Positions 8,871-54,896 are shown, counted from the stretch's first letter. The stretch is DNA of 59,360 bases from Planctomycetales bacterium (GCA_005239725.1 SBBM01000038.1:1-59360); one strand, 5' to 3'. Notes: a model not told the origin generated them from the letters alone. Program-made: numbers and translations.

Positions 8871-9034
8871 TTAATTTCTCCTTTTTTATCAAAACTTTAA
8901 CTGCCGGGAAACGGACTATCCCCATAAAGGCAGCGGCTTTCTTCTCTTCAGCATTAATCAATTTTTCCTCAATTTTTGCATGTACGATTTATATCCACAA
9001 TCAAATTATTATAAAAATTATCCATAGTCGTTTC

Positions 9035-14072: not shown

Positions 14073-15931
14073 ACGCCGTTATCTATCTTAATATTTTTAA
14101 ACTGCAGATTGTATAATAGCCGGTAAGTCGGAGACTTTCCTAGAAGCTCCTGGTGTGTCCCTATCCCTTCAACCGCCCCGTTCCGCAAAACAACGATCTT
14201 ATGCGCGTGAAGAATCGTAGATAGCCTATGGGCAATCACAATAGCTGTGGCATTTTCCAGTATTTTCTCTATGGCAGACTGAACCTGCCTCTCTGATTCG
14301 CTGTCAAGCGAACTTGTCGCCTCATCAAGGATTAATATATGAGGATTAGCCACGACTGCCCTGGCGATGGCAATGCGCTGGCATTGCCCTCCGGAAAGGA
14401 GCACGCCCCTTTCCCCAACTACAGTGTCATAGCCGGCCGGTAAACTGGTTATAAAACTATGTATATTGGCTATTTCCGCTGCTTTTAGAACATCCGGATC
14501 CGATAAATATTCCCTTCCGTAACGGATATTATTCCGGATCGTATCATTAAAAAGAATGCTTTGCTGGGGTACGACCCCGAAAATCCTACGGTAGCTGTCT
14601 TGTCTTATCCGCCTTAAGTCAACTCCATCAATAGAAATCACACCCTCAGTAGGGTCATAAAACCTCAGGATTAAATCCACCAAGGTGGATTTCCCGGCGC
14701 CGCTCGGGCCGACAATAGCGACAATCTCTCCCTTTCTTACCTCAAAAGAAACACTATCCAGGACCGGGCCATTCCCATAGGAAAAAGATGCATTGTCTAA
14801 CAACAGACTATCTTTAAAATCACTCTTGTCCTCTTTTCCGTCTACAACCTTCGGCTTAAGCCGTAGTAATTCGTCAATCCTGGCGTATGACGCCAATAGC
14901 GCCTGTATCCACGACACATTAACGGCAAGTTTGTTTATGGGATTTATCAGAAGCTGGCCGACAAAAATAAACATGGCAAAACCCTCTACCGTAAGGTTCC
15001 CGTGCATTAATTGCTGAGCGGCGATAAGGACAATGCCGACCATGGCAAAGGCGTCCAAAATAGACCGCGTCGGCTCCTGAAGGTTTTTAACCTTACCTGC
15101 TTTCAGTTCGGCACCAACTACCCCGTCAATCCCTTTTTCCAGCTTTTTGATCTCATACTTCTCGCCCCCGAATGATTTTATCACTCTTACAGAAGTAAAA
15201 ACTTCATGGAGCATATTTGAAAACTCCGCGGCCTTATCAAGCAGCATGCGGGTGGTACTGCTTAATGGCCGTTTAATAAGCTCCGTCAGGCCGAACTGCG
15301 CCAAAATCAGCCCGAATGCAACAAAAGTCAATACGACATTGGTGCTGAATAAATAAGTGCTGTATATTATTATCAGGATACTATGGTAAAACAGACTCCG
15401 CACTAACGGCCCCACGCCATTAGCCGTATTTTTGGCATCTTGCATGATACGCGACATCAAATCACCGGTCTTTTGATGATTAAAAAATACCATATTCAAA
15501 GAAAGGATGTGATGGGCTATATCCATTTGTATTAATTTTATGGCGCGGGTCTCAATGGAAAGCGACAAAAGGAATCCTGCGTAATTAATAATAGAGGAAA
15601 GGGCTACTAACAGCATATAAATGACGGTCAGGATAAGCAGGGAATTCCATTTATCATGCGAAAATGAGGAGATAACCCCCATTACCCGGCCACCAATGTG
15701 GTTAAGGTCAAGTGAACCTGCCATCGATTGGGTGCCTGCAACATCATGCTGGCCTACAACAATATTCATTATTCCCGCCAATACTACCGGCTGGCTTGCT
15801 GCAATAAAATTTGCCACAAGAGTAACGGGAATAAGTAAAATTATTAGCCGGCGCAAGGGCCAGGCATACGTCTTTACAAGATACCCGAAAGAAACCTTAT
15901 TCTTAACTTTTCCGTTCATATGATTGCTCAT
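14069..15931 (-). CDS. ABC exporter, fused permease/ATPase (MsbA/PglK-type, probable lipid-linked glycan flippase)
   Basis: N-terminal transmembrane domain; GPSGAGKST Walker A, LSGGQ signature, ILDEATS Walker B. Confidence 0.9.
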   Translation of the reverse strand: MSNHMNGKVKNKVSFGYLVKTYAWPLRRLIILLIPVTLVANFIAASQPVVLAGIMNIVVGQHDVAGTQSMAGSLDLNHIGGRVMGVISSFSHDKWNSLLILTVIYMLLVALSSIINYAGFLLSLSIETRAIKLIQMDIAHHILSLNMVFFNHQKTGDLMSRIMQDAKNTANGVGPLVRSLFYHSILIIIYSTYLFSTNVVLTFVAFGLILAQFGLTELIKRPLSSTTRMLLDKAAEFSNMLHEVFTSVRVIKSFGGEKYEIKKLEKGIDGVVGAELKAGKVKNLQEPTRSILDAFAMVGIVLIAAQQLMHGNLTVEGFAMFIFVGQLLINPINKLAVNVSWIQALLASYARIDELLRLKPKVVDGKEDKSDFKDSLLLDNASFSYGNGPVLDSVSFEVRKGEIVAIVGPSGAGKSTLVDLILRFYDPTEGVISIDGVDLRRIRQDSYRRIFGVVPQQSILFNDTIRNNIRYGREYLSDPDVLKAAEIANIHSFITSLPAGYDTVVGERGVLLSGGQCQRIAIARAVVANPHILILDEATSSLDSESERQVQSAIEKILENATAIVIAHRLSTILHAHKIVVLRNGAVEGIGTHQELLGKSPTYRLLYNLQFKNIKIDNGV

Positions 15932-16275
15932 GTTTTTTGCGGATAAGAATCTCCTGATTCATCGGTATAAATAAAATCAAAGGTGTTGTCGCCAAAAGGC
16001 AAAGCTTCAACCTTATGTGTAGTAAATCCCTCGACCGCTATTCCTGTTTCCTTCGCCCTAAGAAGGACAATTTGGTTTGCCTCTTCGTTTGGCTCGACTC
16101 CAGAAACTATGCAATCTTTTTTATGCAATTCGACTGCAAACCCCTTCTTTCGGCAACTTCTTCGCTCCGGCGCATTGACACCCAATATTCCGGATCCCCT
16201 AACCCGACCTGCTTATAGGTGCGCCTCCAATAATCCTTTAAACGGTTTATAATTTTCTTCGGAATAAGCGCTCAT
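15928..16275 (-). pseudogene. Degraded class I methyltransferase
   Basis: A coupled ATG at 16275 reaches a stop after 20 codons. The remaining pieces lie in other frames, and one keeps SGVEPN...EALPFGDNTFDFIY. Motif I and the C-terminal half are missing. Confidence 0.7.
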
Positions 16276-42810: not shown

Positions 42811-43680
42811 TTATTGATCCAGACAATAACGCCTGTCTTTTTCAAATACAGCATATACGAATTGCGCAAACAGCGATAAAGGCACAAAGTGGCGGCAGGA
42901 AAAAAAACCGATTTTTGGTTTAAAAATATTTGCCAACTGCCTGTCCCCCTTAATGATCGAGTAAAAAAACAGGTGTGATACCCGCAGCCTGCATTTTTTT
43001 GCAATGTGCCTGATCTCGGAAAATGTCAGGAAATGATGCGAACTGAAATTATTCCGGTCAGCCCAAAACTTCTTCCTGGAATAATACTTTATATATTTAA
43101 GGCAGAGTTGGGTGATCCGGGATATTCCATGCCTCGGCTCAATTAAAAGGATGCAGCCGTTCTCCGATAGATGAGAAACACATTTCTGCATAAATTCGGT
43201 CCGATTCGGGATATGGTGTATAGAATTAATAAATACTATCATGTCAAACTTCCGCTTAAACTCGGTTCTTAAGAAATCCCCGCAAATTAATTCAGATTTT
43301 ACGCGGTCATCCGCACGAATGACTTCTTTGGCGATATACTCGATAAAAGGTTTCACAATATCGATAGCCGTATAATTTATCAAATTCGGGGAATCCAAAA
43401 ACAGCCTAGCATAAAATCCGTTCCCCGGTCCAATCTCTAACACAGATGAAGGAGAATAGCTGCCGATAGCCCAACTGACGATCCTGCCTTCCTTAGTTTC
43501 GCCGGCAGGGATGAATCTCATATGGTCACGGTCATAACTCCCTGGGTTTGCATATTGGGCATTATTATGCAAACGCGTAGACTCCAGCAATGCGGCCTTT
43601 TCATCAGTAGCCAACAAACGCCACATCAAATGATTCGGCAGCATAAAATAGAGAAATACCCCCAGGTGGCTGTTAAGCAA
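42811..43680 (-). CDS. Class I SAM-dependent methyltransferase
   Basis: VLEIGPGNG and NSIHHI motifs. Start moved to the TTG at 43680, which follows GGAGG. Confidence 0.8.
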   Translation of the reverse strand: MLNSHLGVFLYFMLPNHLMWRLLATDEKAALLESTRLHNNAQYANPGSYDRDHMRFIPAGETKEGRIVSWAIGSYSPSSVLEIGPGNGFYARLFLDSPNLINYTAIDIVKPFIEYIAKEVIRADDRVKSELICGDFLRTEFKRKFDMIVFINSIHHIPNRTEFMQKCVSHLSENGCILLIEPRHGISRITQLCLKYIKYYSRKKFWADRNNFSSHHFLTFSEIRHIAKKCRLRVSHLFFYSIIKGDRQLANIFKPKIGFFSCRHFVPLSLFAQFVYAVFEKDRRYCLDQ

Positions 43681-44014
43681 TTTTAGCCTCCTCTCTGGCG
43701 GCAAGCTCTTCCAATTCACGTTTTATCAAATTGTATTCGCTTTCCTTAATTTTCAAAAAGTGCTGCATAAGCTGCAGCTTGTGCTGGAGTCCTTGCTTTG
43801 TGAGGATATAATTTATTTTGCGTAGTTTACCTGGATGATTTGAAAAATTTTTAACCTCGATTAAGCCTTTTTTGATAAGTTCTCTGAGGAGGTAATTAGT
43901 TTTGCCCAAAGAAATGCCCAGATTTTGCGAAATTGCTCGCTGAGTAATCTTTGGGTTAGATTCTATCTCCTTGATAATAAAAAGGATATCTTCTTTTTGA
44001 GGTTGTTCAATCAT
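43673..44014 (-). CDS. MarR-type EPS-associated transcriptional regulator
   Basis: TQRAISQNLGISLGKTNY, KKGL, NF...YILTKQG and FLKIKESEY motifs. Confidence 0.9.
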   Translation of the reverse strand: MIEQPQKEDILFIIKEIESNPKITQRAISQNLGISLGKTNYLLRELIKKGLIEVKNFSNHPGKLRKINYILTKQGLQHKLQLMQHFLKIKESEYNLIKRELEELAAREEAKIA

Positions 44015-44049
44015 TGAACTATTTTAGCATAAAAAAAACGGAAAATCAA
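44005..44049 (-). promoter_or_regulatory. Sigma70 promoter (probably leaderless) with a palindromic operator over the start codon
   Basis: TTGATT (44049-44044), 17-bp spacer, TG-extended TAAAAT (44026-44021), then 6 nt to the ATG. The inverted repeat GTTCAAT-G-ATTGAAC lies at 44005-44019. Confidence 0.8.
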
Positions 44050-44065
44050 GGTCATATTCTCTGTA

Positions 44066-44260
44066 TGTAAAAGCAAGATAGAAATTTCATATTTTTAGCA
44101 AAATAGAAATTTCATATTTTAAAGAGCGCCTACCAGAGTTTCTTCTTTCTCTTCAAAGTCTAAGGAAGTCGGTAATCTAAAGTTCCTCCAGGGATGATCC
44201 TTAGGAGGAATGTATTTCTTTCTTAGGTTTTTAAAAGGTTCTTTTGGTTTTGGTGCCCCA
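44066..44260 (-). mobile_element. Right-end remnant of an IS1202/ISNCY-type insertion sequence
   Basis: Transposase-like C-terminus KYIPPKDHPWR. Two 25-bp-period direct repeats AGCAARATAGAAATTTCATATTTT (44072, 44097) follow it, ending at a terminal TGT (44066). Confidence 0.7.
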
Positions 44261-44307
44261 TTTAAACACGGCATAACTATGCTTAATTCCAGGCTGTTAC
44301 CTTCCAT
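44260..44307 (-). pseudogene. 5' stub of a GT2 glycosyltransferase fused to the transposase remnant
   Basis: MEGNSLELSIVMPCLN is a canonical GT2 N-terminus and is coupled to the upstream gene. The similarity stops abruptly there. Confidence 0.7.
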
Positions 44308-46061: not shown

Positions 46062-47357
46062 TTAACCTCTCCCTATACATTTGTAAATAAAGCCCATATT
46101 CTTCATTTTTGCCGGGCCAAAAATATTTCTTCCGTCGACGATTACCGGATGGCTGAGCAACTTTTTAATTTTTTCCAAATCCAGCCTCTTAAACTCATCC
46201 CATTCAGTCATAATCAAAAGGCAATTAGCTTTTCGCGCTGCTTCGTAAGGGTCATTGCAGAATTTAACCCCTTTTAATTCCGCGCTTGCTTTCGGCATGG
46301 CCTTGGGATCGTAAGCCTTAAGCCGCGCCCCCGCAGATATAAGCATCTTTGCTATATCCATAGCCACGGAATTGCGGATATCGTCTGTGTCGGGCTTAAA
46401 ACTCAAACCCAGGATGCCGATAGTTTTATCCTTGATTATCCATAAGGCTTCTTCAATTTTCTTGAATAAAACTTTTTTCTGTTCGTCATTTATGCGCCGA
46501 ACTGCTTTAAGTAATTCAAATTCATATCCTTTTACATGCGCCAAATGTATAAAGGCATCCACGTCCTTGGGAAAACAGGAGCCGCCGTAACCTGCACCGG
46601 CATTTAAAAACGACCGGCCTATGCGTTTATCCAAACCCATTGCCTCCGCCACTTTTTCCACATCCGCACCCACTCTCTCACAGATACTGGCGATAGCGTT
46701 GATAAACGAAATCTTGGTTGCCAGGAAAGAATTACAGGCGTGTTTTATGATTTCCGCGGTTTCGATATTGCAGGCGATTATCGGCGTCTTTAAAGGGCCA
46801 TAGAGCTTGCGCATAATCTCTTCGGCAGTCTTACTCGCTACGCCTATAATTATCCTGTCGGGATGCATGGCATCGGTTAAGGCCTGGCCTTCTCTGATGA
46901 ACTCCGGATTAGAAACAACATCAAAAGCGACCTTGCGCGAATTGCTCATTTCTATTGTACGCTTGATTTTTTCGCCGGTTTCTGCCGGCACTGTGCTCTT
47001 TTCCACAATAACTTTATATTCCTTCATAGCCCCGGCAATCGCGCGCGCGACTTTCTCCACTGCGGATAAATCCGCGCTCCCGTCGGAGCGGGATGGCGTG
47101 CCAACGCAAATAAAAATAATCTGGGATTTCTCTGTCGCTTCCTTTATGCTGAAAATAAAATTAAGCCTCTTTGCCTTTTTATTTCTTAAAACCATCTCTT
47201 CCAGGCCCGGCTCATATATCGGCATTATCCCCTTTTTAAGGCTTACAATTTTTTTCTTATCGTTATCCACGCAAATTACCCGGTTTCCCAACTCGGCAAG
47301 GCATGCCGCCGTAACCAAACCCACATAGCCCGAACCAATAACAGCTACTTTTTGCAT
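46062..47357 (-). CDS. ugd: UDP-glucose 6-dehydrogenase
   Basis: [26 protein letters not shown] and FKPDTDD motifs. Confidence 0.93.
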
Positions 47358-47374
47358 TTGAGTACCTCCGTTTT

Positions 47375-47426
47375 GGGGACAGGTGCCTTCTTTTACTTTA
47401 GAGCTAACAAGATAGCATCTGCCCCC
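47375..47426. repeat. 52-bp hairpin repeat, copy 1 (intergenic, manC-ugd)
   Basis: GGGGACAGGTGC...GCATCTGCCCCC; 10 of 12 positions are inverted matches; preceded by TTTT. Confidence 0.75.
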
Positions 47427-47438
47427 GATTAGATTATC

Positions 47439-48962
47439 TCAAAGACAGTCCTTGTCACGGCCGAAGTCATCTTTTAGCCTGACAATATCGTCTTCCTCAA
47501 GGTAAGTTCCGGTCTGGACCTCGACAATTTTCAATACGGAATTACCTACGTTGGTCAGCCGGTGTATGCAGGAAACAGGAATAAATGTACTTTCGTTGGA
47601 ATTGACATAATACGATTTCTTGCCTTTGACAATCTTAGCCTTTCCTTCAACAACTACCCAGTGTTCGCTGCGTTTCTTATGCAGCTGCAGGCTTAAGGAA
47701 CACCCCGTTTTGACCTCAACTAATTTTATTTTAAAACCCTCCCCTCTGTCCAGCACAGTATAGCTGCCCCAGGGCCGCTTTACTGTGCGGTGAAAATAGT
47801 GCTCCGGGCGCTTATTGGCCTTTAAAATGTCAACCACTTTTTTCACTTCTTCGCTTTTGTCTTTTTTGGTTATAAGAAGGGCGTCAGGGGTATCAACAAC
47901 GATTAAGTCATTCAATCCTATGGTAGCGATTAAATGGTCTTTGCCTAAAACCGTTACATTCCTGCTTCCCAGATTAATTATATCGCCTATCAGGGCATTG
48001 CCTTTATTATCCTTCGGGAGAATCTCATCCCATGCCTGCCAACTCCCCAAATCCGACCAGCCGAGGTTGTCAGCTTTTAACATCAAAAGAGAATGCGACT
48101 TTTCAAGTATGCCGTAATCAAAGGATATGGCGCTAATATTATCCCAGACTGGATTTATATCGCCTGCCACATTGATTTTGGTTAGCTGCTTATACACGGA
48201 AGGCAGATGGATTTTGAAATCGCTTAAAAACTTCCTGCAGGAGCCGACGAAAATTCCGCTGTTCCAAAAATACCCTTTATTTTTTACGAATTTTTTTGCA
48301 GTGGCCAAATCCGGCTTTTCAAGGAATTTTTCCACTTCATAGATTTCCCTCGGGGACAGGTTCCTTTCGATCATCGTTATTTTTGGGGGCAGGCCTCTTC
48401 CGTTACGTTGCGATAGCCAAGACGAAGACTCTCCCCGCTTAGCGAGGCAAGACGGGATTTGTCCCGGTTTAGCTAGCCTTTTAACCTTTATATAGCCATA
48501 GCCGGTTGCCGGGCGGTATGGTGGTATGCCAAAAACAACCAGACGTTCATCGCATAAGTTAAAAGCCTTATTCAATGCGGCGCGGAACTGATTTGCGTGG
48601 TTAATCATGTGGTCGCAGGGAAGGACGCATACCCGGGCATCCGGAAAACGCAAGGAAATCAGGCGGACTGCAAGCCCGATGGAGGGAGCGGTATTTTTAG
48701 GGCTAGGCTCGCAAATTATATTTTCCTGAGGGATATTTAACGGAGAGACAAACTCAATAATCTGATTGCGGTACAGGTCTGAAGTAACTATAAAGATATT
48801 TTTTGCCGGAATCAACGGTTTTATCCGGCTGACAGTCTGCGCAAATAAACTGTCATTCTCATGCAAGGAAAGAAATTGCTTTGGCTCAAGTGTGCGGCTT
48901 TGCGGCCAGAATCTCGAACCCTGCCCGCCCGCTAAGAGTACGGCGTAGTTATGATTAGGCAT
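47439..48962 (-). CDS. manC: Mannose-1-phosphate guanylyltransferase/mannose-6-phosphate isomerase, with an internal insertion
   Basis: LAGGQGSRFWPQSR, PKQF, NTAP, FLEKP, WNSG, WSDLGSW, RPWG and SLQLH...EHW motifs. Confidence 0.93.
   Translation of the reverse strand: MPNHNYAVLLAGGQGSRFWPQSRTLEPKQFLSLHENDSLFAQTVSRIKPLIPAKNIFIVTSDLYRNQIIEFVSPLNIPQENIICEPSPKNTAPSIGLAVRLISLRFPDARVCVLPCDHMINHANQFRAALNKAFNLCDERLVVFGIPPYRPATGYGYIKVKRLAKPGQIPSCLAKRGESSSWLSQRNGRGLPPKITMIERNLSPREIYEVEKFLEKPDLATAKKFVKNKGYFWNSGIFVGSCRKFLSDFKIHLPSVYKQLTKINVAGDINPVWDNISAISFDYGILEKSHSLLMLKADNLGWSDLGSWQAWDEILPKDNKGNALIGDIINLGSRNVTVLGKDHLIATIGLNDLIVVDTPDALLITKKDKSEEVKKVVDILKANKRPEHYFHRTVKRPWGSYTVLDRGEGFKIKLVEVKTGCSLSLQLHKKRSEHWVVVEGKAKIVKGKKSYYVNSNESTFIPVSCIHRLTNVGNSVLKIVEVQTGTYLEEDDIVRLKDDFGRDKDCL
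48385..48436. repeat. 52-bp hairpin repeat, copy 2 (inside manC)
   Basis: 48381-48436 matches 52403-52458 at 48 of 56 positions without gaps. Confidence 0.88.
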
Positions 48963-48974
48963 ATTAGATTCTTT

Positions 48975-50204
48975 TCACAGATAAAACCAAGGTAAAGCAA
49001 TAACATTATCCGCGAGGAGCTCTTTTCTACCTCCCATCGTAATCACAAATCCATGTTTTGCTGCCTTGCCGTAATCGTTTAAAAAACTTTTCAACCCTTT
49101 TATATCCGATTGAGCCACAAAAGAAGAACTTTTAATCTCTATTGGAATAACTGTACTACCCATATCAATAACGCAATCGACTTCCGCGCCTGCGGATGTC
49201 CGCCAATAGCATATTTTATAATTTTTATTTAATGCCTTTATCCTCCTGATTATTTCAAGCATAACCGCATGCTCAAAAAGGACGCCTTTTTGAGCATTTA
49301 CCAGTCCGCCGGTAAGCGGAAAACGGGCTAAGACATTCCGTACGCCTATGTCAAAAAAGTAATAACGAGGGGAGGAAAGAATCCGTTTACGGGAATTTTT
49401 CAGGTACGGTTCTATCTTTTCGATAACCAGGGTATCTTCGAGTATATTATAAAATTCTTTGACCGCAGGTTGGCTGACTCCTGATTCGGCTGAAAGCTTA
49501 TATAGATTAGGGTTTGTGCCGGACCCTACGGCAGCAAGCTCAAGAAAACGGGAAAAGGCGCCTATTTTTCTGCTCAACGCCTCTGCCCTAATTTCCTCTT
49601 CAAGGTATATCTCGACGTAGGCCTTTAAAAAATCCTCCCTTTCTTTCTGGGATAATCTCACAATTCCAGGCAATGAACCGTAAATAAGCGTATCCTCAAA
49701 CGAATAAGGAACATCGTAATTAATATTACCAATGGCCAGCTCCGTTATGGCGCTGCCCCGGATTAATCCTAACTCTCCCCATAGCAAAGGGCTTAAATGA
49801 TAACGTTTTATTCTACCCGGCAGAAGGTTAATGCCCTGCCGTTTTAATTTCCGCGCAGATGAACCGGTAAGTATAAAATGCGCATCCTTATCATCAATGA
49901 GGGCCTGCACCGCGTCAAATAACGCCGGGACTTTTTGCGCCTCGTCAATAAAAACGCAGGGGTTATTTTTAAACGCGCGGACCTGGCCAATCAGTCTCGA
50001 AGGCTCTCTCTCTAACTCTATCCGCAGAGAAGGCTCCTGTAAAAGGTATTTTACGGTATTCTTTACCTTTTTAAGGCATTCATTTACCAGTGTAGTCTTA
50101 CCGACCTGACGCGGGCCTAAAATAAGGGATGAGTGGCCTTTTTTTATTCCGGCGGCGATTGCCTTATTGAGGTATCGTAATAATGGTTTATTTTTACCTT
50201 GCAT
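48975..50204 (-). CDS. AAA+ ATPase with DUF4143 domain and PD-(D/E)xK-like tail
   Basis: GPRQVGKTT, FIDEAQ, LTGSS, YFFDIG and YWRT...EVD...IEIK motifs. Confidence 0.88.
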   Translation of the reverse strand: MQGKNKPLLRYLNKAIAAGIKKGHSSLILGPRQVGKTTLVNECLKKVKNTVKYLLQEPSLRIELEREPSRLIGQVRAFKNNPCVFIDEAQKVPALFDAVQALIDDKDAHFILTGSSARKLKRQGINLLPGRIKRYHLSPLLWGELGLIRGSAITELAIGNINYDVPYSFEDTLIYGSLPGIVRLSQKEREDFLKAYVEIYLEEEIRAEALSRKIGAFSRFLELAAVGSGTNPNLYKLSAESGVSQPAVKEFYNILEDTLVIEKIEPYLKNSRKRILSSPRYYFFDIGVRNVLARFPLTGGLVNAQKGVLFEHAVMLEIIRRIKALNKNYKICYWRTSAGAEVDCVIDMGSTVIPIEIKSSSFVAQSDIKGLKSFLNDYGKAAKHGFVITMGGRKELLADNVIALPWFYL

Positions 50205-50206
50205 AA

Positions 50207-50239
50207 ATAAAGTATACTTTATATTTTGATTCTTGTCAA
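50207..50239 (-). promoter_or_regulatory. Near-consensus sigma70 promoter (probably leaderless) for the ATPase gene
   Basis: TTGACA (50239-50234), 17 bp, TATACT (50216-50211), then 6 nt to the ATG. The perfect palindrome ATAAAGTATACTTTAT lies at 50207-50222. Confidence 0.82.
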
Positions 50240-50247
50240 GCAGATAA

Positions 50248-51225
50248 TTAATCTGCCGGGGAGAGTCCCTGAAAATAGTCGACTGTCTTTCTTAGGCCAT
50301 CTTCAAAGCCGATTTTTGACTCGTAACCCAAAACCTCTCTTGCCTGAGAAATATCCGCAAGCGTCTTAAAAACATCACCCGGCCTTATCGGAAGGAACAA
50401 AGGCTTAATTTTCTTATTCATGATTTTATTAAGCAGAGCGACCAAATCTAAAACCGTATTGTCTTTTCCGGTGGCAATATTAAAAAGCGCGTATTTAATG
50501 CCGGGGGTCGTCGCTGCTAATATGTTAGCCTCGACTACATTGGCGACATAAGTAAAATCCCGCGACTGTTTTCCGTTGCCAAAAATGGGCGGCTGTTTTC
50601 CTTTGAGCATGCAACTGATAAACTTTGGAATTACTACCGCATACTGGTCATCAAGCGCCTGCCTGGGCCCAAAGACATTAAAATAACGTAAAGATACTGT
50701 TTCTAAACCATAAATCTTAGAATATATGCGACAGTAATATTCACTGCATAATTTGGTTAATGCGTAAGGAGAAATGAGCCTGGAGAGCTCGGTTTCTCTC
50801 TCCGGGAATTTATCCGTATCGCCATATATGGAACTCGAAGAAGCGAATACAAAACGTTTTACCTTTTGCGCATGCGCTGCCTTAAGCATATTCAGGGTGC
50901 CGTTGATATTAACATCATTATATTCGTAGGGATTAATCAAGGACCTCGGCACGGAGCGCAATGCCGCCTGGTGTAAAACAAAATCCACACCGAAGCATGC
51001 GCGCAAACAGATTTTGTAATTGCGGATGTCGCCCTTGAGCAATTCAAAAGCAGGGACAGTCCCCTTCGGGGGCAGCCCCTGGCGAATAAATTTAAGGTTA
51101 AATTCTTTGCCAGAAGAGAAATTATCCAAAACGCGCACAAAATTACCCTCTTTAAGCAGCCGTTCAACTATATGCGACCCGATAAAACCAGCCCCTCCGG
51201 TTACCAGATACTTTCTCTTCCTCAT
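50248..51225 (-). CDS. UDP-HexNAc(A) 4-epimerase (WbpP/TviC-like SDR)
   Basis: TGGAGFIGSH, HQAALRSVPRS, SPYALTK, LRYFNVFGPRQ and YAVVIPKF motifs. Confidence 0.88.
   Translation of the reverse strand: MRKRKYLVTGGAGFIGSHIVERLLKEGNFVRVLDNFSSGKEFNLKFIRQGLPPKGTVPAFELLKGDIRNYKICLRACFGVDFVLHQAALRSVPRSLINPYEYNDVNINGTLNMLKAAHAQKVKRFVFASSSSIYGDTDKFPERETELSRLISPYALTKLCSEYYCRIYSKIYGLETVSLRYFNVFGPRQALDDQYAVVIPKFISCMLKGKQPPIFGNGKQSRDFTYVANVVEANILAATTPGIKYALFNIATGKDNTVLDLVALLNKIMNKKIKPLFLPIRPGDVFKTLADISQAREVLGYESKIGFEDGLRKTVDYFQGLSPAD
51052..51080. repeat. Two tandem short GGGACAGTCCC-type palindromes inside the epimerase gene
   Basis: AGGGACAGTCCCC-TT-CGGGGGCAGCCCCT, encoding QGLPPKGTVP. Confidence 0.7.
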
Positions 51226-51229
51226 TTTA

Positions 51230-52396
51230 TCATTTCTCCACTTTTAGGAAACGCCGGCTGCCGACTTTAAGCACGCCTGGCAGAACAATACTGAAATTCT
51301 CGTCGGTAACCTTGTTGCCATTAAACTCCACTGCCCCTTGCTGCAATAACCGGCGCGCTTCGTTTTTACTCTTTGCCAAACCGCTCCCGACAATTACGTC
51401 AATAACTTTTACCGGGCCCGAAATTTTAAAAACCGGCATAGCATCGGGAATCTGTCTGGAGCTAAATACCTTCTCAAAATTATCCGCGGCCTTATCCGCT
51501 GTTTCAGCCGAATGATACTTTCCGATAATAATCTTGGCTAATTTTACCTTTGCCTCTTTAGGATGCATAGCTTTCACACTATCCAAATCCTCGACGGTAA
51601 GCAGGGTGTAATATTTAAACATCAACTCATCGGATATCGACATAATCTTACCAAACATATCGTCGGGCTTCTCATTTATCCCGACATAATTTCCGTAAGA
51701 TTTGCTCATTTTCTGTGCGCCGTCAGTACCTTCCAGAAGCGGCATAGTAATAACAACCTGCTGCTCCTGGTTAAAGTCTTTCTGGATATCCCTGCCGATC
51801 AAAAGATTAAATATCTGGTCTGTCCCCCCTATTTCCACATCCGCTTCCAACTTTACGGAATCAAAACCCTGCAAAACCGGATACATAAACTCCAGGAGCG
51901 AAATATCTTTATTATCCGAAAGCCTTTTTTTAAAATCCGCCCGCGCAAGCATCTGCGATACTGTCGCATGCGTGGTCAGCTTTAGGATTTCCAGGACACT
52001 CATCTTGTCAAACCATTCGCCGTTGAAAACAACCTTAATTTTATGGATATCCAGTATTTTGGAAACTTGTTTTTTGTAGGTTTCGGCATTCCTGCGCACC
52101 TCTTCCGGGGTAAGTTGCTTTCTTGTTTCTGACCTCCCGCTGGGGTCTCCGATACGCCCGGTAAAATCACCGATAAGAAAATAAACCTGGTGCCCTAAAT
52201 CCTGAAACTGGCGCAGTTTGCTTAATAATACCGTGTGCCCCAGGTGCAAATCCGGGGCAGTGGGGTCAAAACCGGCTTTTATGCGCAAGGGCCGGTTCTC
52301 CTTTTGGGCGCTTTCTAATTTCCGGATTAATTCCTCCTCGGAAATTATGTCAACTGCGCCGCGCTTGATTATTTCTAATTGATTTTTAATGTCCAT
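51230..52396 (-). CDS. tyrS: Tyrosine-tRNA ligase
   Basis: [18 protein letters not shown] and KMSKS motifs; C-terminal S4 domain. Confidence 0.97.
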
Positions 52397-52406
52397 AGCT
52401 CTTTTT

Positions 52407-52458
52407 GGAGACAGGCCTCTTCCGCTACTTTGCTATCGCCAAGACGAGGACTGTCCCC
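52407..52458. repeat. 52-bp hairpin repeat, copy 3 (intergenic, rpsA-tyrS)
   Basis: GGAGACAGGCCTC...GAGGACTGTCCCC, preceded by TTTT. Confidence 0.88.
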
Positions 52459-52464
52459 ATTTGG

Positions 52465-54006
52465 CTATATCTTCGCCGACAACCCCATCTTGCACTGCTC
52501 GACATCAACCTTGATTACCTTAACTTTTATTTTGTCGCCCGGCTTAAGCTGCTTTAACTGCTCCTGGTCTATCTCGTTGGAGAAAACCAGTCCTTCCAGG
52601 TCTTCGTCTATTTTTGCAAACACGCCAAAATCCGTAATGTTGACAACCTCGACCTCAAGCTGGGTATCTAAGGGGTATTTCTTGGCGATTTCCGGCCAGG
52701 GGTTAGGCTGCAATTGCTTTAACCCTAGAGCGATACGCTGATTTTGGGCATCAACCGAAAGGATTGCCACCTCTATCTTTTGGCCTTTTTTCAGAACATC
52801 CTGGGGATGAGCTATCCTTTTCGTCCAGGATAAGTCAGAAATATGAATCATCCCTTCAAGGGCTAAGTCTAGTTCCACAAATACTCCATACTTGGTAAAA
52901 CCCTTTACTTTTCCCTGGACAGTTGCGCCGGGCGCATATTTAGAACCCGCTTCAAGCCACGGATTTTGCTCTAATTGTTTGAGACTGAGGGCGATTTTCC
53001 TGGCTTCTTTGTCCACGTTTAAGACCTGGACCTCAAGCATATCGCCTATGGCAAACATTTCCGCCGGATTTTCCACCCTCTTTACCCAGGATATCTCGGA
53101 TACGTGGATAAGGCCCTCAATGCCTTTTTCCAGTTCCACAAAAATTCCGTAAGGAAGTATGTTTACCACCTTGCCCTTGACCTTAGTCCCGGCGGTGTAT
53201 TTGGTCTCAATGTCTCCCCAGGGGTCGGGAGTCCTCTGTTTTAGGCCCAAAGAAATCTTATTTGACTCCTTATCAATATTCAGCACCACTACCTCTATCC
53301 TGTCTCCCACAGCTACTATCTCGGAAGGATGCGTCACCTTTGACCAGGACATATCGGTAATATGCAGGAGGCCGTCCACTCCGCCCAAATCAATAAATGC
53401 GCCGAAATCGGTTATGGCTTTTACAGTGCCCGGATATACCTCCCCTGCCCTTAATTCCTGCCAGATTTTTTCCCGGGCCTTATCTTTTTCCTTCTGCATA
53501 GCCTCCCGGCGGGAAAGTATAATACTGTACCTGAGCTTATTAATCTTTACAATCTTAAACTTAAATACCTTGTAAAGTATGTCCTTATCCGGCACATTTT
53601 TGAAAGCCGATAAGGATGATGGCAAAAACCCGTCTATGCCCATAACATCAACGAGGAAACCGCCCTTTACTTTCTTGGTGGGCTTACCGTCAACGAGCTC
53701 CCCGTCCTCAAAATTCTTTACCACCTGGCCCCAACCCTGCATGTGTTTTGCCTTTTCGCGGGAGAGCACGATTGTCCCCACCTCGTTTTCAATAGACTCA
53801 ACAAGAAAATCGAGCTCTTTGCCTACTTCCAGTTCGTCTTTGCCGAATTCGGTTATAGGGACTATTCCTTCGGACTTAAAATCCACATCAACCAGCACCT
53901 CTTTCTGTTTTAGCCAGACAATCTTGCCTTTAACCACCTGGCCTTCCCGGATGATTTTTATGCTTTCGTTATACATCTGTTCCAAAGCGGACCTTTCTTC
54001 TGACAT
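52465..54006 (-). CDS. rpsA: 30S ribosomal protein S1
   Basis: Six S1 repeats; DFGAFIDLGGVDGLLHITDMSW; AAGGAGG ribosome-binding site. Confidence 0.96.
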   Translation of the reverse strand: MSEERSALEQMYNESIKIIREGQVVKGKIVWLKQKEVLVDVDFKSEGIVPITEFGKDELEVGKELDFLVESIENEVGTIVLSREKAKHMQGWGQVVKNFEDGELVDGKPTKKVKGGFLVDVMGIDGFLPSSLSAFKNVPDKDILYKVFKFKIVKINKLRYSIILSRREAMQKEKDKAREKIWQELRAGEVYPGTVKAITDFGAFIDLGGVDGLLHITDMSWSKVTHPSEIVAVGDRIEVVVLNIDKESNKISLGLKQRTPDPWGDIETKYTAGTKVKGKVVNILPYGIFVELEKGIEGLIHVSEISWVKRVENPAEMFAIGDMLEVQVLNVDKEARKIALSLKQLEQNPWLEAGSKYAPGATVQGKVKGFTKYGVFVELDLALEGMIHISDLSWTKRIAHPQDVLKKGQKIEVAILSVDAQNQRIALGLKQLQPNPWPEIAKKYPLDTQLEVEVVNITDFGVFAKIDEDLEGLVFSNEIDQEQLKQLKPGDKIKVKVIKVDVEQCKMGLSAKI

Positions 54007-54032
54007 TTTAATTTCCTCCTTAAATAAAATTT

Positions 54033-54047
54033 TAGGGACAGTCCCTA
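54033..54047. repeat. Short palindrome TAGGGAC-A-GTCCCTA at the ispH stop
   Basis: Perfect 7-bp inverted repeat with the same core as the dispersed repeat family. Confidence 0.7.
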
Positions 54048-54896
54048 TTTATGCCTTATTTTCTCAATTATTTTTTTCGCCAGCCAATCAGGCGCGGACG
54101 CGCCGCTTATTATCCCCACAGTTTTGGCGCCCTTTAATATTTTATCCAGGGGCGCATCTTCCTTTTCAATCAGGTACGTATTTTTGTTGATTTTCCGCCC
54201 GATTGAAAATAGCCTCTTGGTATTTGCGCTCATCTTAGAGCCGATAACCAGCAGCACGTCGGAAGACCTTGCAAGCTTTGCGGCTTCCTTCTGCCGGTTG
54301 GCCGTATCCAGGCAGATGGTGTTAAATATCTGCGCCTCTCTCACTTCGGGATTCTTCTCTAAAATCTTGCTTACCATCAGGAAGAATTTATCTTTTGCCT
54401 GGGTAGTCTGGGAAATAATCCCGATTTTTTTAAACGTTATTTTGCCATCATTAATATCCTCTGCCTTATCAATAACCCGCGCCCCGGGAGCCAGGTCTAA
54501 AAGTGCTCTTATTTCAGGGTGCTTTTCGTCGCCGATAATAACCACTTTAAACCCCTGTCCATAGAGCCTTGAGCATATCCTCTGCACCGAAGAAACATAG
54601 GGGCACGTTACATCAATGAGTTTTAAATTTTTCTTCTTAGCCGCAATAAGCACGCGCTTCGGGCTGCCGTGGGAAGGTAAAATTACCGTTGAGCGGGCTT
54701 CTATATTGTCCAGTGAATTAACTACACATAGGTTCCTTTCTTTAAGCCTCTTAATAACCTGGGGGTTATGAATTATCTGGCCTAAAGAATAAACTTTGTT
54801 TTCTTTAGCGGAAAGCAATGTCTTTTCGGCAATATTAATTGCCCTGCGGACACCTGAACAAAAGCCGGTATTCCTGGCTAATTTGATACTGAGCAT
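54045..54896 (-). CDS. ispH: 4-hydroxy-3-methylbut-2-enyl diphosphate reductase
   Basis: GFCSGVRRA, IIHN, TCPYV, HPE, SQTT, NTIC and GASAPDW motifs. Confidence 0.95.
   Translation of the reverse strand: MLSIKLARNTGFCSGVRRAINIAEKTLLSAKENKVYSLGQIIHNPQVIKRLKERNLCVVNSLDNIEARSTVILPSHGSPKRVLIAAKKKNLKLIDVTCPYVSSVQRICSRLYGQGFKVVIIGDEKHPEIRALLDLAPGARVIDKAEDINDGKITFKKIGIISQTTQAKDKFFLMVSKILEKNPEVREAQIFNTICLDTANRQKEAAKLARSSDVLLVIGSKMSANTKRLFSIGRKINKNTYLIEKEDAPLDKILKGAKTVGIISGASAPDWLAKKIIEKIRHK

Follow-up and report, generated by a model that had tools for sequence, protein, structure and literature searches.

A short imperfect-palindrome repeat between genes and within the manC reading frame of a bacterium most likely belonging to Candidatus Omnitrophota

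Results

Three copies of a 52-nt repeat

It was found that three gap-free copies of a 52-nt imperfect palindrome lie within 5 kb on a contig of 59,360 nucleotides (called the window here, meaning the whole stretch of DNA that was analysed). They are located at 47375..47426 (copy 1), 48385..48436 (copy 2), and 52407..52458 (copy 3), all on the minus strand. All three are sense-oriented in an array of genes on a single strand. Copies 1 and 3 fill the manC-ugd and rpsA-tyrS gaps, and copy 2 lies within the ORF of manC and is translated into amino acids. I put at roughly 0.6 the probability that the copies represent a small, lineage-restricted family of imperfect palindromes of the same kind as REPs, MITEs, and the Rickettsia palindromic elements (RPEs), with intergenic copies acting as mRNA hairpins. 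Judging from the source names of the ManC homologs, the host most likely belongs to Candidatus Omnitrophota.

An earlier note on this DNA had described the copies on the plus strand, where TTTT precedes each of them. The copies are real. The degenerate consensus proposed there finds exactly these three sites when up to three mismatches are allowed (each has zero) and no site in 100 dinucleotide shuffles. What that reading had missed is the sense orientation of the element, the translation of copy 2 in manC, and a probable nested arrangement at this locus. Since all genes in the window are on the minus strand (this holds for every ORF of at least 120 aa with a Pfam hit), the element is read here in its sense form, GGGGACAG...CTGTCCCC-AAAA, whose ends are AANY-GGGG... 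and ...CCCC-AAAA.

In the gap-free alignment, copies 2 and 3 are identical at 48/56 positions and copies 1 and 3 at 34/56, as had been reported; the value for copies 1 and 2 is 33/56. Copies 2 and 3 share 72 nt at 81% (repeat family D3). The core is 52 nt in 3/3 copies, or about 62 nt when counted with the A-rich flanks (in the sense strand, every copy has AA.. before its 5′ end and AAAA after its 3′ end); the earlier proposal that the length is under selection has these three copies as its basis. The flanks of the copies are unrelated and the similarity stops at the element borders, so the copies are discrete units.

A covariance model (CM) built from the three copies gives them scores of 79.1 bits (copy 1), 81.2 bits (copy 2), and 83.5 bits (copy 3), and across the 59 kb window it finds no other full copy, the next best hit having only 16.5 bits. 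In total, the contig holds three full copies and one split copy, and no full copy lies in the other 54 kb. By reading, the element is absent from all the other intergenic gaps longer than 30 nt (8871-9034, 15932-16271, 44015-44296, and 50205-50247). With just three full copies, confined to 5 kb, a dispersed repeat is not demonstrated.

An interrupted stem with conserved apical boxes

The copies share a 15-pair stem with two 1x1 interruptions, an outer stem of 8 bp, and an apical region of about 18 nt. The terminal inverted arms (GGGGNCAG-N-NNNN and the complement) account for 12 paired positions at the ends. Standard pairs occupy 43 of the 45 pair cells, and sliding the 3′ partners by 1-3 columns lowers the share to 47-64%. 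The run of three covarying pairs noticed earlier is real; these pairs correspond to columns 14-16 with 45-47 of alignment A2 and are changed on both sides. Together with strand-specific G-U pairs (7/54, 9/52, 15/46, 17/44, and 21/40, all of which would read A-C on the other strand), these both-sided changes keep the stem of copies 1 and 3 at an identity of only 61%. Between copies of this identity, the apical boxes UCUUG, AANGUA, and GAAG are also conserved. The covariation is statistically weak, since it comes from three sequences and one event (copy 1 versus copies 2 and 3), and the observed values are reached by 42-50 of 500 shuffles.

As sense RNA, copy 1 folds at -25.1 kcal/mol (z -4.56; 0 of 200 shuffles as good) and copy 3 at -24.4 kcal/mol (z -4.07). 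The antisense fold of copy 3 has -18.5 kcal/mol (z -2.58), which is 5.9 kcal/mol weaker than its sense fold. In contrast, copy 2 folds no better than shuffled sequence (z +0.58 for sense and +0.07 for antisense). Thus, the label of hairpin, which had been given to all three copies, is limited here to copies 1 and 3. Two adjacent pairs of the outer stem, 9/52 and 10/51, are broken in copy 2 only.

When the element is treated as single-stranded DNA, its two strands are about equal in folding energy (-8.9 to -10.3 kcal/mol; z -2.4 to -3.5). This would suit a site that works at the DNA level, either one for recombination, for example an integron attC, or one bound by a nucleoid or regulatory protein, and so would the imperfect inverted repeat, the conserved internal boxes, and the same-orientation gene array. 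However, core sites of the attC type, which have the consensus GTTRRRY/RYYYAAC, are not seen by reading at the element borders. Copy 2 interrupts a gene and bounds no cassette, the spacings between successive copies (1,010 and 4,022 bp) do not mark off single genes, and no integrase or recombinase is found among 55 window ORFs scanned against Pfam. A DNA-level site is hardly to be expected on this evidence.

Copies 1 and 3 between cistrons

Copy 1 lies in an 81-nt gap between the stop codon of manC (47439-47441) and the start of ugd (47357). Its hairpin starts 12 nt past the stop codon and is followed, in sense order, by AAAA, a GGAGG ribosome-binding site, and ATG. Copy 3 lies in a 68-nt gap between the stop codon of rpsA (52465-52467) and the start of tyrS (52396); the hairpin starts 6 nt past the rpsA stop codon and ends 10 nt ahead of the tyrS ATG. 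Taken together, the two copies start 6-12 nt after the upstream stop codon and end 10-17 nt before the next start codon. They would be transcribed within a polycistronic mRNA. By analogy, they probably work in the RNA as REP-type hairpins, shielding or marking off stretches of mRNA that lie right before the next ribosome-binding site.

Copies 1 and 3 are probably not terminators or riboswitches. For an intrinsic terminator, a U-tract is missing, and the sense strand carries AAAA after the hairpin. A scan that takes only loops of 3-8 nt gave 13 terminator-like sites in 47000-54300, none of which overlaps any of the copies. A riboswitch or leader was rejected on two grounds: the genes downstream have no relation to each other, and one copy lies in coding sequence. 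A promoter reading was also rejected, with no predicted site overlapping the copies. Elsewhere in the window, a strong TTGACA-17-TATACT site at 50239-50211 belongs to a gene of a DUF4143 ATPase.

Hairpins that serve as processing sites or stabilisers between cistrons include the RNase III sites of phage T7 and REP stabilisers such as that of malE-malF. The likeness lies in a helix of about 15-17 bp with interruptions that sits between cistrons, is sense-oriented, and directly flanks ribosome-binding sites; the difference is that a cleavage or stabilisation role of the present element is suggested by analogy. It is possible, though unlikely, that the element is a dedicated host-encoded RNA element of this sort, specific to this operon region (an RNase III-type processing site or a 5′/3′ stabiliser whose apical boxes are sequence-specific) that is not mobile, and that the manC copy is an accidental duplication. 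This would agree with the strength and sense orientation of the hairpins with their G-U pairs, with the boxes kept between copies of such low identity, with the stereotyped placement right before the ribosome-binding site of the next gene, and with the confinement of all copies to 5 kb. On the other hand, the downstream genes ugd and tyrS are functionally unrelated.

Copy 2 and a probable older split copy inside manC

The copies inside manC also bear on this question. The manC gene (47439..48962, minus strand; assigned by Pfam) encodes a mannose-1-phosphate guanylyltransferase / mannose-6-phosphate isomerase of 507 aa and is the host gene of both copy 2 and the split copy. Copy 2 is in frame and encodes about residues 176-194 (RGESSSWLSQRNGRGLPPK). 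When translated in the frame of copy 2, copy 1 has two stop codons and copy 3 has one, while copy 2 has none.

The ManC loop between the GYGYI motif and the F/L-x-EKP motif is 54 aa in this protein (P0001) versus 17 aa in its sister homolog (P0002), and spans 10-72 aa across 115 homologs. The sister relationship of P0001 and P0002 has a support of 0.992 in a tree made with the loop removed from the alignment. The insert of copy 2 is absent from P0002, which gives an empty site at the protein level. Residues 163-206, lying between two matched stretches, are without counterpart in PDB 2x5s, and in the AF2 model residues 164-202 have a pLDDT below 50 and form a coil between the strands 157-162 and 207-214. 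Together with the split copy, copy 2 lengthens ManC by about 37-38 residues, in frame and with no stop codon. Copy 2 is an insertion into a permissive disordered surface loop of ManC that took place after the divergence from P0002.

Sequence matches on either side indicate that copy 2 is probably nested between the two halves of an older copy, which it has split. The probable 3′ half (AAGGAACCTGTCCCC; 48352..48366, minus strand; local alignment) lies downstream of copy 2 in the sense direction and matches the 3′ arm of copy 1 at 14 of 15 bases (model positions 41-56). Its score of 25 is reached in 0 of 2950 control windows. The probable 5′ half (GGGACAAATCCCGTCTTG; 48448..48465, minus strand; local alignment) lies directly upstream of copy 2 in the sense direction and matches model positions 5-23 with a score of 19, which 55 of the 2950 control windows reach. 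Taken alone, this match is weak; in order and register it is consistent with the 3′ half.

The presence of copies in the ManC loop implies copying to new sites and therefore mobility of some sort. That copy 2 and the split copy sit in a coding loop insert absent from the sister homolog speaks against a non-mobile, host-encoded RNA element. Insertion into coding loops is not known for intercistronic processing or stabiliser hairpins.

Relatives and a mobilising enzyme

Comparison with Rfam, a check named in the earlier note, matched no described family: the whole window gave 0 matches at the gathering score, and the interval 47200-54200 gave 0 at E<=1; this result also argues against the dedicated RNA element. 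The parts of the Omnitrophota literature available to me on palindromic, hairpin, or in-frame repeats contain no description of such a repeat. A pattern of the conserved boxes (TCTTG-N8-AANGTA-N3-GAAG-N3-CCTG) was scanned over 185,579 genomes of other species and gave 18 single hits in 18 unrelated taxa. These hits were rejected as chance, since about 17 are expected (596 Gb, two strands, 18 fixed bases, uniform composition) and their CM scores are all at or below 17.2 bits, compared with 79-84 bits for the true copies.

The loop peptide of 48 aa was searched against 5.8 billion proteins with the length option 'longer'; three candidates were scored and only the self-match was obtained. A phmmer search of the peptide against 1.84 billion representatives gave four hits at E<=0.001. 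All four were rejected as unrelated, since they are internally repetitive and each score adds up 3-16 weak stretches; P0122, for example, matches in four repeated 'KRGESALWLAAKNGR'-like stretches.

According to Di Nocera et al. (2013, PMC3733652), tagged REPs are 20-40 bp in length with a terminal unpaired GTAG or CGTC tag, and the CGTC families have loops of 4-5 nt. REPs lie mostly between unidirectional ORFs near the 3′ end of the upstream ORF, and in-frame intragenic REPs exist (PMC3733652). The present element resembles REPs in being a short hairpin repeat between unidirectional ORFs, at most 20 nt from the upstream stop codon and plausibly transcribed, with an outer stem of 8 bp and an occasional in-frame intragenic copy that adds about 20 residues. 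Its palindromic unit near the upstream stop codon and its one intragenic copy, both of which are REP features in that source, would allow for a true REP that is moved by a RAYT (Y1/HUH) transposase whose gene lies in another part of the genome. However, this appears quite improbable for a core of 52 nt, rather than 20-40 nt, with no unpaired terminal tag. Copy 1 lacks CGTC, copies 2 and 3 have it internally only, and GTAG is confined to the apical part of copy 3. The apical region of about 18 nt carries conserved boxes and exceeds the 4-5 nt loops of the CGTC families, the stem has two interruptions, and no head-to-head dimers are seen among the copies in the window. Moreover, none of the same 55 ORFs encodes a transposase, whether a Y1 transposase/RAYT or another. 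Thus, the description of the repeat as REP/MITE-like stands in kind (discrete units, terminal inverted arms, two intergenic copies, and one insertion absent from the closest homolog), while its suggested link to RAYT or other HUH transposases is unsupported.

The family proposed here also shares traits with other small repeats. RPEs are repeats of Rickettsia of about 100-150 bp, mostly intragenic and inserted in frame, as described in a review (PMC10969869). Like them, the present element is a palindromic repeat that is in frame in a metabolic enzyme and is translated at a site tolerated by the fold, namely the disordered ManC loop. Compared by description rather than by sequence, it differs from RPEs in its 52-nt core, its host, which is assigned to Omnitrophota, and the intragenic location of only 1/3 full copies. 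The likeness to MITEs consists of the terminal inverted repeats and an empty orthologous site, the latter at the protein level only.

Discussion

The repeat family may spread as a hairpin-forming unit by means of an enzyme encoded elsewhere in the genome; alternatively, it would spread by recombination or template switching at hairpins. No consistent target-site duplication was found by eye at the three copies; TAA is present on both sides of copy 2, and copies 1 and 3 have no equivalent repeat. The nested arrangement of copy 2 suggests that a new copy can insert at the apical loop of one already in place. The insertion sequences IS1397 and ISKpn1 insert into the loops of REP palindromic units and are full insertion sequences with a transposase. 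Copy 2 within the split copy is apparently likewise a mobile unit lodged in the apex of an existing palindromic repeat, whereas the inserted unit here is another copy of the small repeat itself.

Are there remnants of the element, or more distant relatives? The 16.5-bit hit of the covariance model (rough E 0.004) is a mini palindrome, TAGGGACTGTCCCTA then AAAATTTTATT, at 54033..54047 on the minus strand in the 38-nt ispH-rpsA gap, and it was flagged as terminator-like. It resembles the outer arms of the element without the interior, and the kinship suggested by this resemblance is uncertain. GGGACNGTCCC has exactly two occurrences in the window. A modest excess of GGGAC/GGGGACAG words was also observed, partly due to the copies themselves.

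In two distant ManC homologs (P0015 and P0024), a 20-residue segment of the loop, RGQS...RGLSPK, matches the translated arms in the same frame. The scores are 37 and 35, and 4 and 8 of 1000 shuffles, respectively, are as high. Both homologs are far from P0001 in the tree, as the MRCA clade contains 96 of the 115 leaves. A wider hairpin super-family of Omnitrophota, sharing the arms GGGGACAG/CTGTCCCC-AAAA with differing interiors, nesting by preference in the apical loops of palindromes already present and repeatedly colonising the same ManC loop, is a doubtful idea at present. If RGQS...RGLSPK is encoded by GGGGACAG...CTGTCCCCAAAA arms, both the super-family and the recurrent loop colonisation would be supported. 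Should the idea hold, there would be a mobilisation targeting hairpin loops that is distinct from the RAYT/REP system, and protein loops of an uncultured phylum would repeatedly gain new sequence from it.

For annotation, the 507-aa ManC is to be taken as carrying an in-frame repeat insertion and as neither a misassembly nor a pseudogene; the hypervariable loop in the ManC proteins of Omnitrophota is a site that tolerates such insertions. The finding is otherwise an ordinary one for bacterial genomes. It adds a repeat family that has no Rfam model, in a host phylum known almost only from metagenomes, and the small locus would display three fates of one selfish hairpin: RNA-competent between cistrons, decayed and translated in the loop of an enzyme, and split by a later copy.

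A 52-nt hairpin repeat in three copies

An earlier note, made from the sequence alone, placed copies of a hairpin element at positions 47375-47426 (copy 1), 48385-48436 (copy 2), and 52407-52458 (copy 3). All three positions were confirmed, and the 52-nt repeat is a real feature. The degenerate consensus of that note matches these sites with 0 mismatches each and no other site in the window at up to 3 mismatches, and it had 0 matches in 100 dinucleotide-preserving shuffles. The copies can be aligned without gaps, and their identities had been counted correctly (48/56 for copies 2 and 3, 34/56 for copies 1 and 3); copies 1 and 2 share 33/56. They are discrete units with inverted terminal arms at their ends, and their flanks are unrelated to one another. 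A 15-pair interrupted stem has standard pairs in 43 of the 45 pair cells of the three copies, and sliding the partners by 1-3 columns lowered this proportion to 47-64%. As for the claimed covariation of stem pairs, copy 1 differs from copies 2 and 3 in both partners of three consecutive pairs (columns 14-16 with 45-47), but the observed values were reached in 42-50 of 500 shuffles; thus the covariation is real but statistically weak, and it counts as one evolutionary event because there are only three sequences.

Gene setting and the two intergenic copies

The Pfam-bearing ORFs of at least 120 aa in the window all lie on the minus strand. Biologically, the element should therefore be read on the minus strand, as AANY-GGGGNCAG-N-NNNN-N-TCTTG...AANGTA...GAAG-NNN-CCTGNCNCC-AAAA. 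In the sense direction, the window has housekeeping genes (a phosphomannomutase-type mutase, an acyltransferase, ispH, rpsA, and tyrS) and then some 50 kb of sugar-nucleotide, nonulosonic-acid, glycosyltransferase, methyltransferase, and radical-SAM genes. On the minus strand, copy 1 occupies the 81-nt manC-ugd gap, starting 12 nt past the stop codon and leaving 17 nt up to the ATG, a stretch that contains GGAGG, and copy 3 occupies the 68-nt rpsA-tyrS gap, 6 nt past the stop codon and 10 nt before the ATG. Their sense RNAs fold at -25.1 kcal/mol (copy 1, z -4.56) and -24.4 kcal/mol (copy 3, z -4.07), with 0 of 200 shuffles equally good in either case. Several stem pairs are G-U pairs, where the opposite strand would have A-C, and copy 3 folds 5.9 kcal/mol less strongly as antisense than as sense RNA; with DNA folding parameters the strands differ little. 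All copies lie within 5 kb. This clustering may have come about by local spread or just because intergenic space is scarce, the ORF list leaving no more than about eight gaps of over 30 nt in the window. Four of the remaining gaps of this size were inspected by reading, and none has the element.

Copy 2 is nested in the manC gene

Copy 2 lies in frame within the 507-aa ORF of manC (47439-48962, minus strand; mannose-1-phosphate guanylyltransferase/mannose-6-phosphate isomerase). When this ManC (P0001) is aligned to the Thermotoga enzyme 2x5s, residues 163-206 are unmatched between chain residues 156 and 162. The loop between the GYGYI and xEKP motifs ranges from 10 to 72 residues in 115 homologs (5 of the 120 listed were dropped since the two anchor motifs were unmatched), and that of P0001, with 54 residues, is the third longest. 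The closest listed homolog, P0002, has a loop of 17 residues. Once the loop is left out of the alignment, the ManC tree joins P0001 and P0002 as sisters (support 0.992), and P0003, with a 24-residue loop, comes next (0.932); therefore, the insertion postdates the split of P0001 and P0002. An AlphaFold2 model, used solely for loop disorder (mean pLDDT 66.8, only 18 sequences), shows residues 164-202 as coil with pLDDT below 50 between the confident strands 157-162 and 207-214.

The differences of copy 2 from the intergenic copies fit residence in a coding region. Read in the frame of copy 2, copy 1 contains two stop codons and copy 3 contains one; copy 2 itself is free of them. Both unpaired stem cells in the whole alignment (pairs 9/52 and 10/51) belong to copy 2, and since copies 1 and 3 agree at both, it is copy 2 that acquired the breaking changes. 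It folds no better than shuffled sequences do (z +0.58).

On the minus strand, AAGGAACCTGTCCCC occurs a short way downstream of copy 2 and matches the 3′ arm of copy 1 at 14 of 15 bases (score equalled in 0 of 2950 control windows), and GGGACAAATCCCGTCTTG, a short way upstream, matches the TCTTG box together with the 5′ arm (equalled in 55 of 2950). In order, orientation, and model register, the two fit the halves of an older copy that was split in its apical region by copy 2. With regard to target duplication, TAA stands on both sides of copy 2, and there is no equivalent around copies 1 and 3. The stretch from 48465 to 48352, with approximate borders, spans 114 nt or 38 codons, which agrees with the loop of P0002 being shorter by 37 residues.

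Search for relatives

The comparison with Rfam proposed in the earlier note gave no known family, either at gathering scores or at E ≤ 1 over 47200-54200. The covariance model proposed there was built from the three copies; apart from these it found no full copy in the window, and its next best match scored 16.5 bits. The internal-box pattern had 18 single matches in 18 unrelated taxa among 185,579 species genomes (the species of the window is evidently absent), where about 17 were estimated to arise by chance; all 18 were rejected as family members, scoring at most 17.2 bits with the model. The 48-residue loop peptide matched only itself among 5.8 billion proteins. A phmmer search of 1.84 billion representatives gave only four internally repetitive proteins, which were rejected since their scores were sums of weak stretches. 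The host is assigned to Candidatus Omnitrophota on the basis of the source names of ManC homologs.

The loops of P0015 and P0024, two ManC homologs far from P0001 in the tree, read RGQS...RGLSPK, which is the coding of the canonical arms in the frame of copy 2, and their alignment to the copy 2 peptide beats 992-996 of 1000 shuffles. Loops expanded to 30-72 residues occur on several separate branches (P0007, P0008, P0012, P0030, P0033, P0045, and P0100). Their peptides are repetitive and of low complexity (for example RHCEEPK..., SLSLPKASLAMT, and PAGRQ), and I suspect from these sequences that they are translated palindromic DNA repeats of other kinds.

Other features of the window

Two mini palindromes containing GGGAC(A/T)GTCCC resemble the outer arms of the element without its interior. 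One, AGGGACTGTCCCT at 54033-54047 (minus strand, ispH-rpsA gap), is followed by AAAATTTTATT, is terminator-like, and scores 16.5 bits with the covariance model; the other lies at 51052-51065 inside an epimerase gene (50248-51225). With at most 1 mismatch, the motif has 4 matches in the window, one of them inside copy 3, against a shuffle mean of 0.61. A sigma-70-like site, TTGACA-17-TATACT (50211-50239, minus strand; 11/12, the best of the region scanned), lies in a gap of 43 nt. The gene that follows it (48975-50204), for an AAA_14/DUF4143 ATPase, looks like an independently transcribed insert between sugar-nucleotide genes. In front of a gene for a small winged-helix/MarR-type regulator (43673-44014) stand two almost identical direct repeats in tandem, each of about 24 nt, AAAATATGAAATTTCTAT(T/C)TTGCT (44015-44120, minus strand), which may be an operator. 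A 94-codon stop-to-stop frame without a start codon (15928-16212, minus strand), in the 340-nt gap from an ABC transporter to a glycosyltransferase gene, ends ...VEALPFGDNTFDFIYTDE...; it looks like a class I methyltransferase fragment and may be a gene remnant. The first ORF (3-1022), which is membrane-protein-like, ends at its C-terminus in a tandem AENPPVQQEVAK... repeat. This is encoded by two identical 38-nt direct repeats spaced by 48 nt at the contig end (1-86), which may be either genuine coding sequence or an effect of the assembly end.

What kind of element

The element fits the small palindromic repeats of the REP, MITE, or RPE (Rickettsia palindromic element) kind, because it forms discrete units with inverted arms, lies between co-directional ORFs, and has an in-frame intragenic copy. 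The earlier note was thus right in kind in calling it REP/MITE-like, and its placement next to stop codons agrees. The link to RAYT transposases is unsupported, as no transposase of any kind was found among the 55 ORFs scanned in the window. In published descriptions, REPs lie between co-directional ORFs beside the upstream stop codon and have in-frame intragenic copies (PMC3733652), as do RPEs for the latter (PMC10969869); the element is like them in both respects. Membership in the tagged REP families, as described in that first source, is ruled out: those are 20-40 nt long with a terminal GTAG/CGTC tag, and the CGTC families have a loop of 4-5 nt, whereas the element is 52 nt long, lacks such a tag, and carries conserved boxes in an apical part of about 18 nt. 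A terminator is ruled out, since the sense strand continues with AAAA rather than a U-tract and no terminator-like site overlaps the element, and a promoter is ruled out by the same site scan. An attC site is ruled out by the lack of an integrase among the 55 ORFs and of a core site at the borders, and by the intragenic copy. A riboswitch or leader is unlikely in view of the unrelated downstream genes and of the copy within a coding sequence.

Proposed mode of action

The element has been copied to new sites, at least twice in the manC loop. Its hairpin is retained in the intergenic copies at an identity of only 61%, and is gone from the translated copy. A hairpin would be the intermediate of its spread, which may depend on an enzyme whose gene lies elsewhere or on template switching or recombination at such structures. 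The nesting of copy 2 in an older copy suggests that resident hairpin loops can serve as targets. Copies 1 and 3 would be transcribed in polycistronic mRNA and, by analogy with REP hairpins, may protect or delimit mRNA segments directly ahead of the following ribosome-binding site. The conservation of the single-stranded boxes UCUUG, AANGUA, and GAAG suggests a sequence-specific partner, which may be a mobilising enzyme or an RNA-binding protein. A less likely reading is that the element belongs to a super-family of repeats that target hairpin loops.
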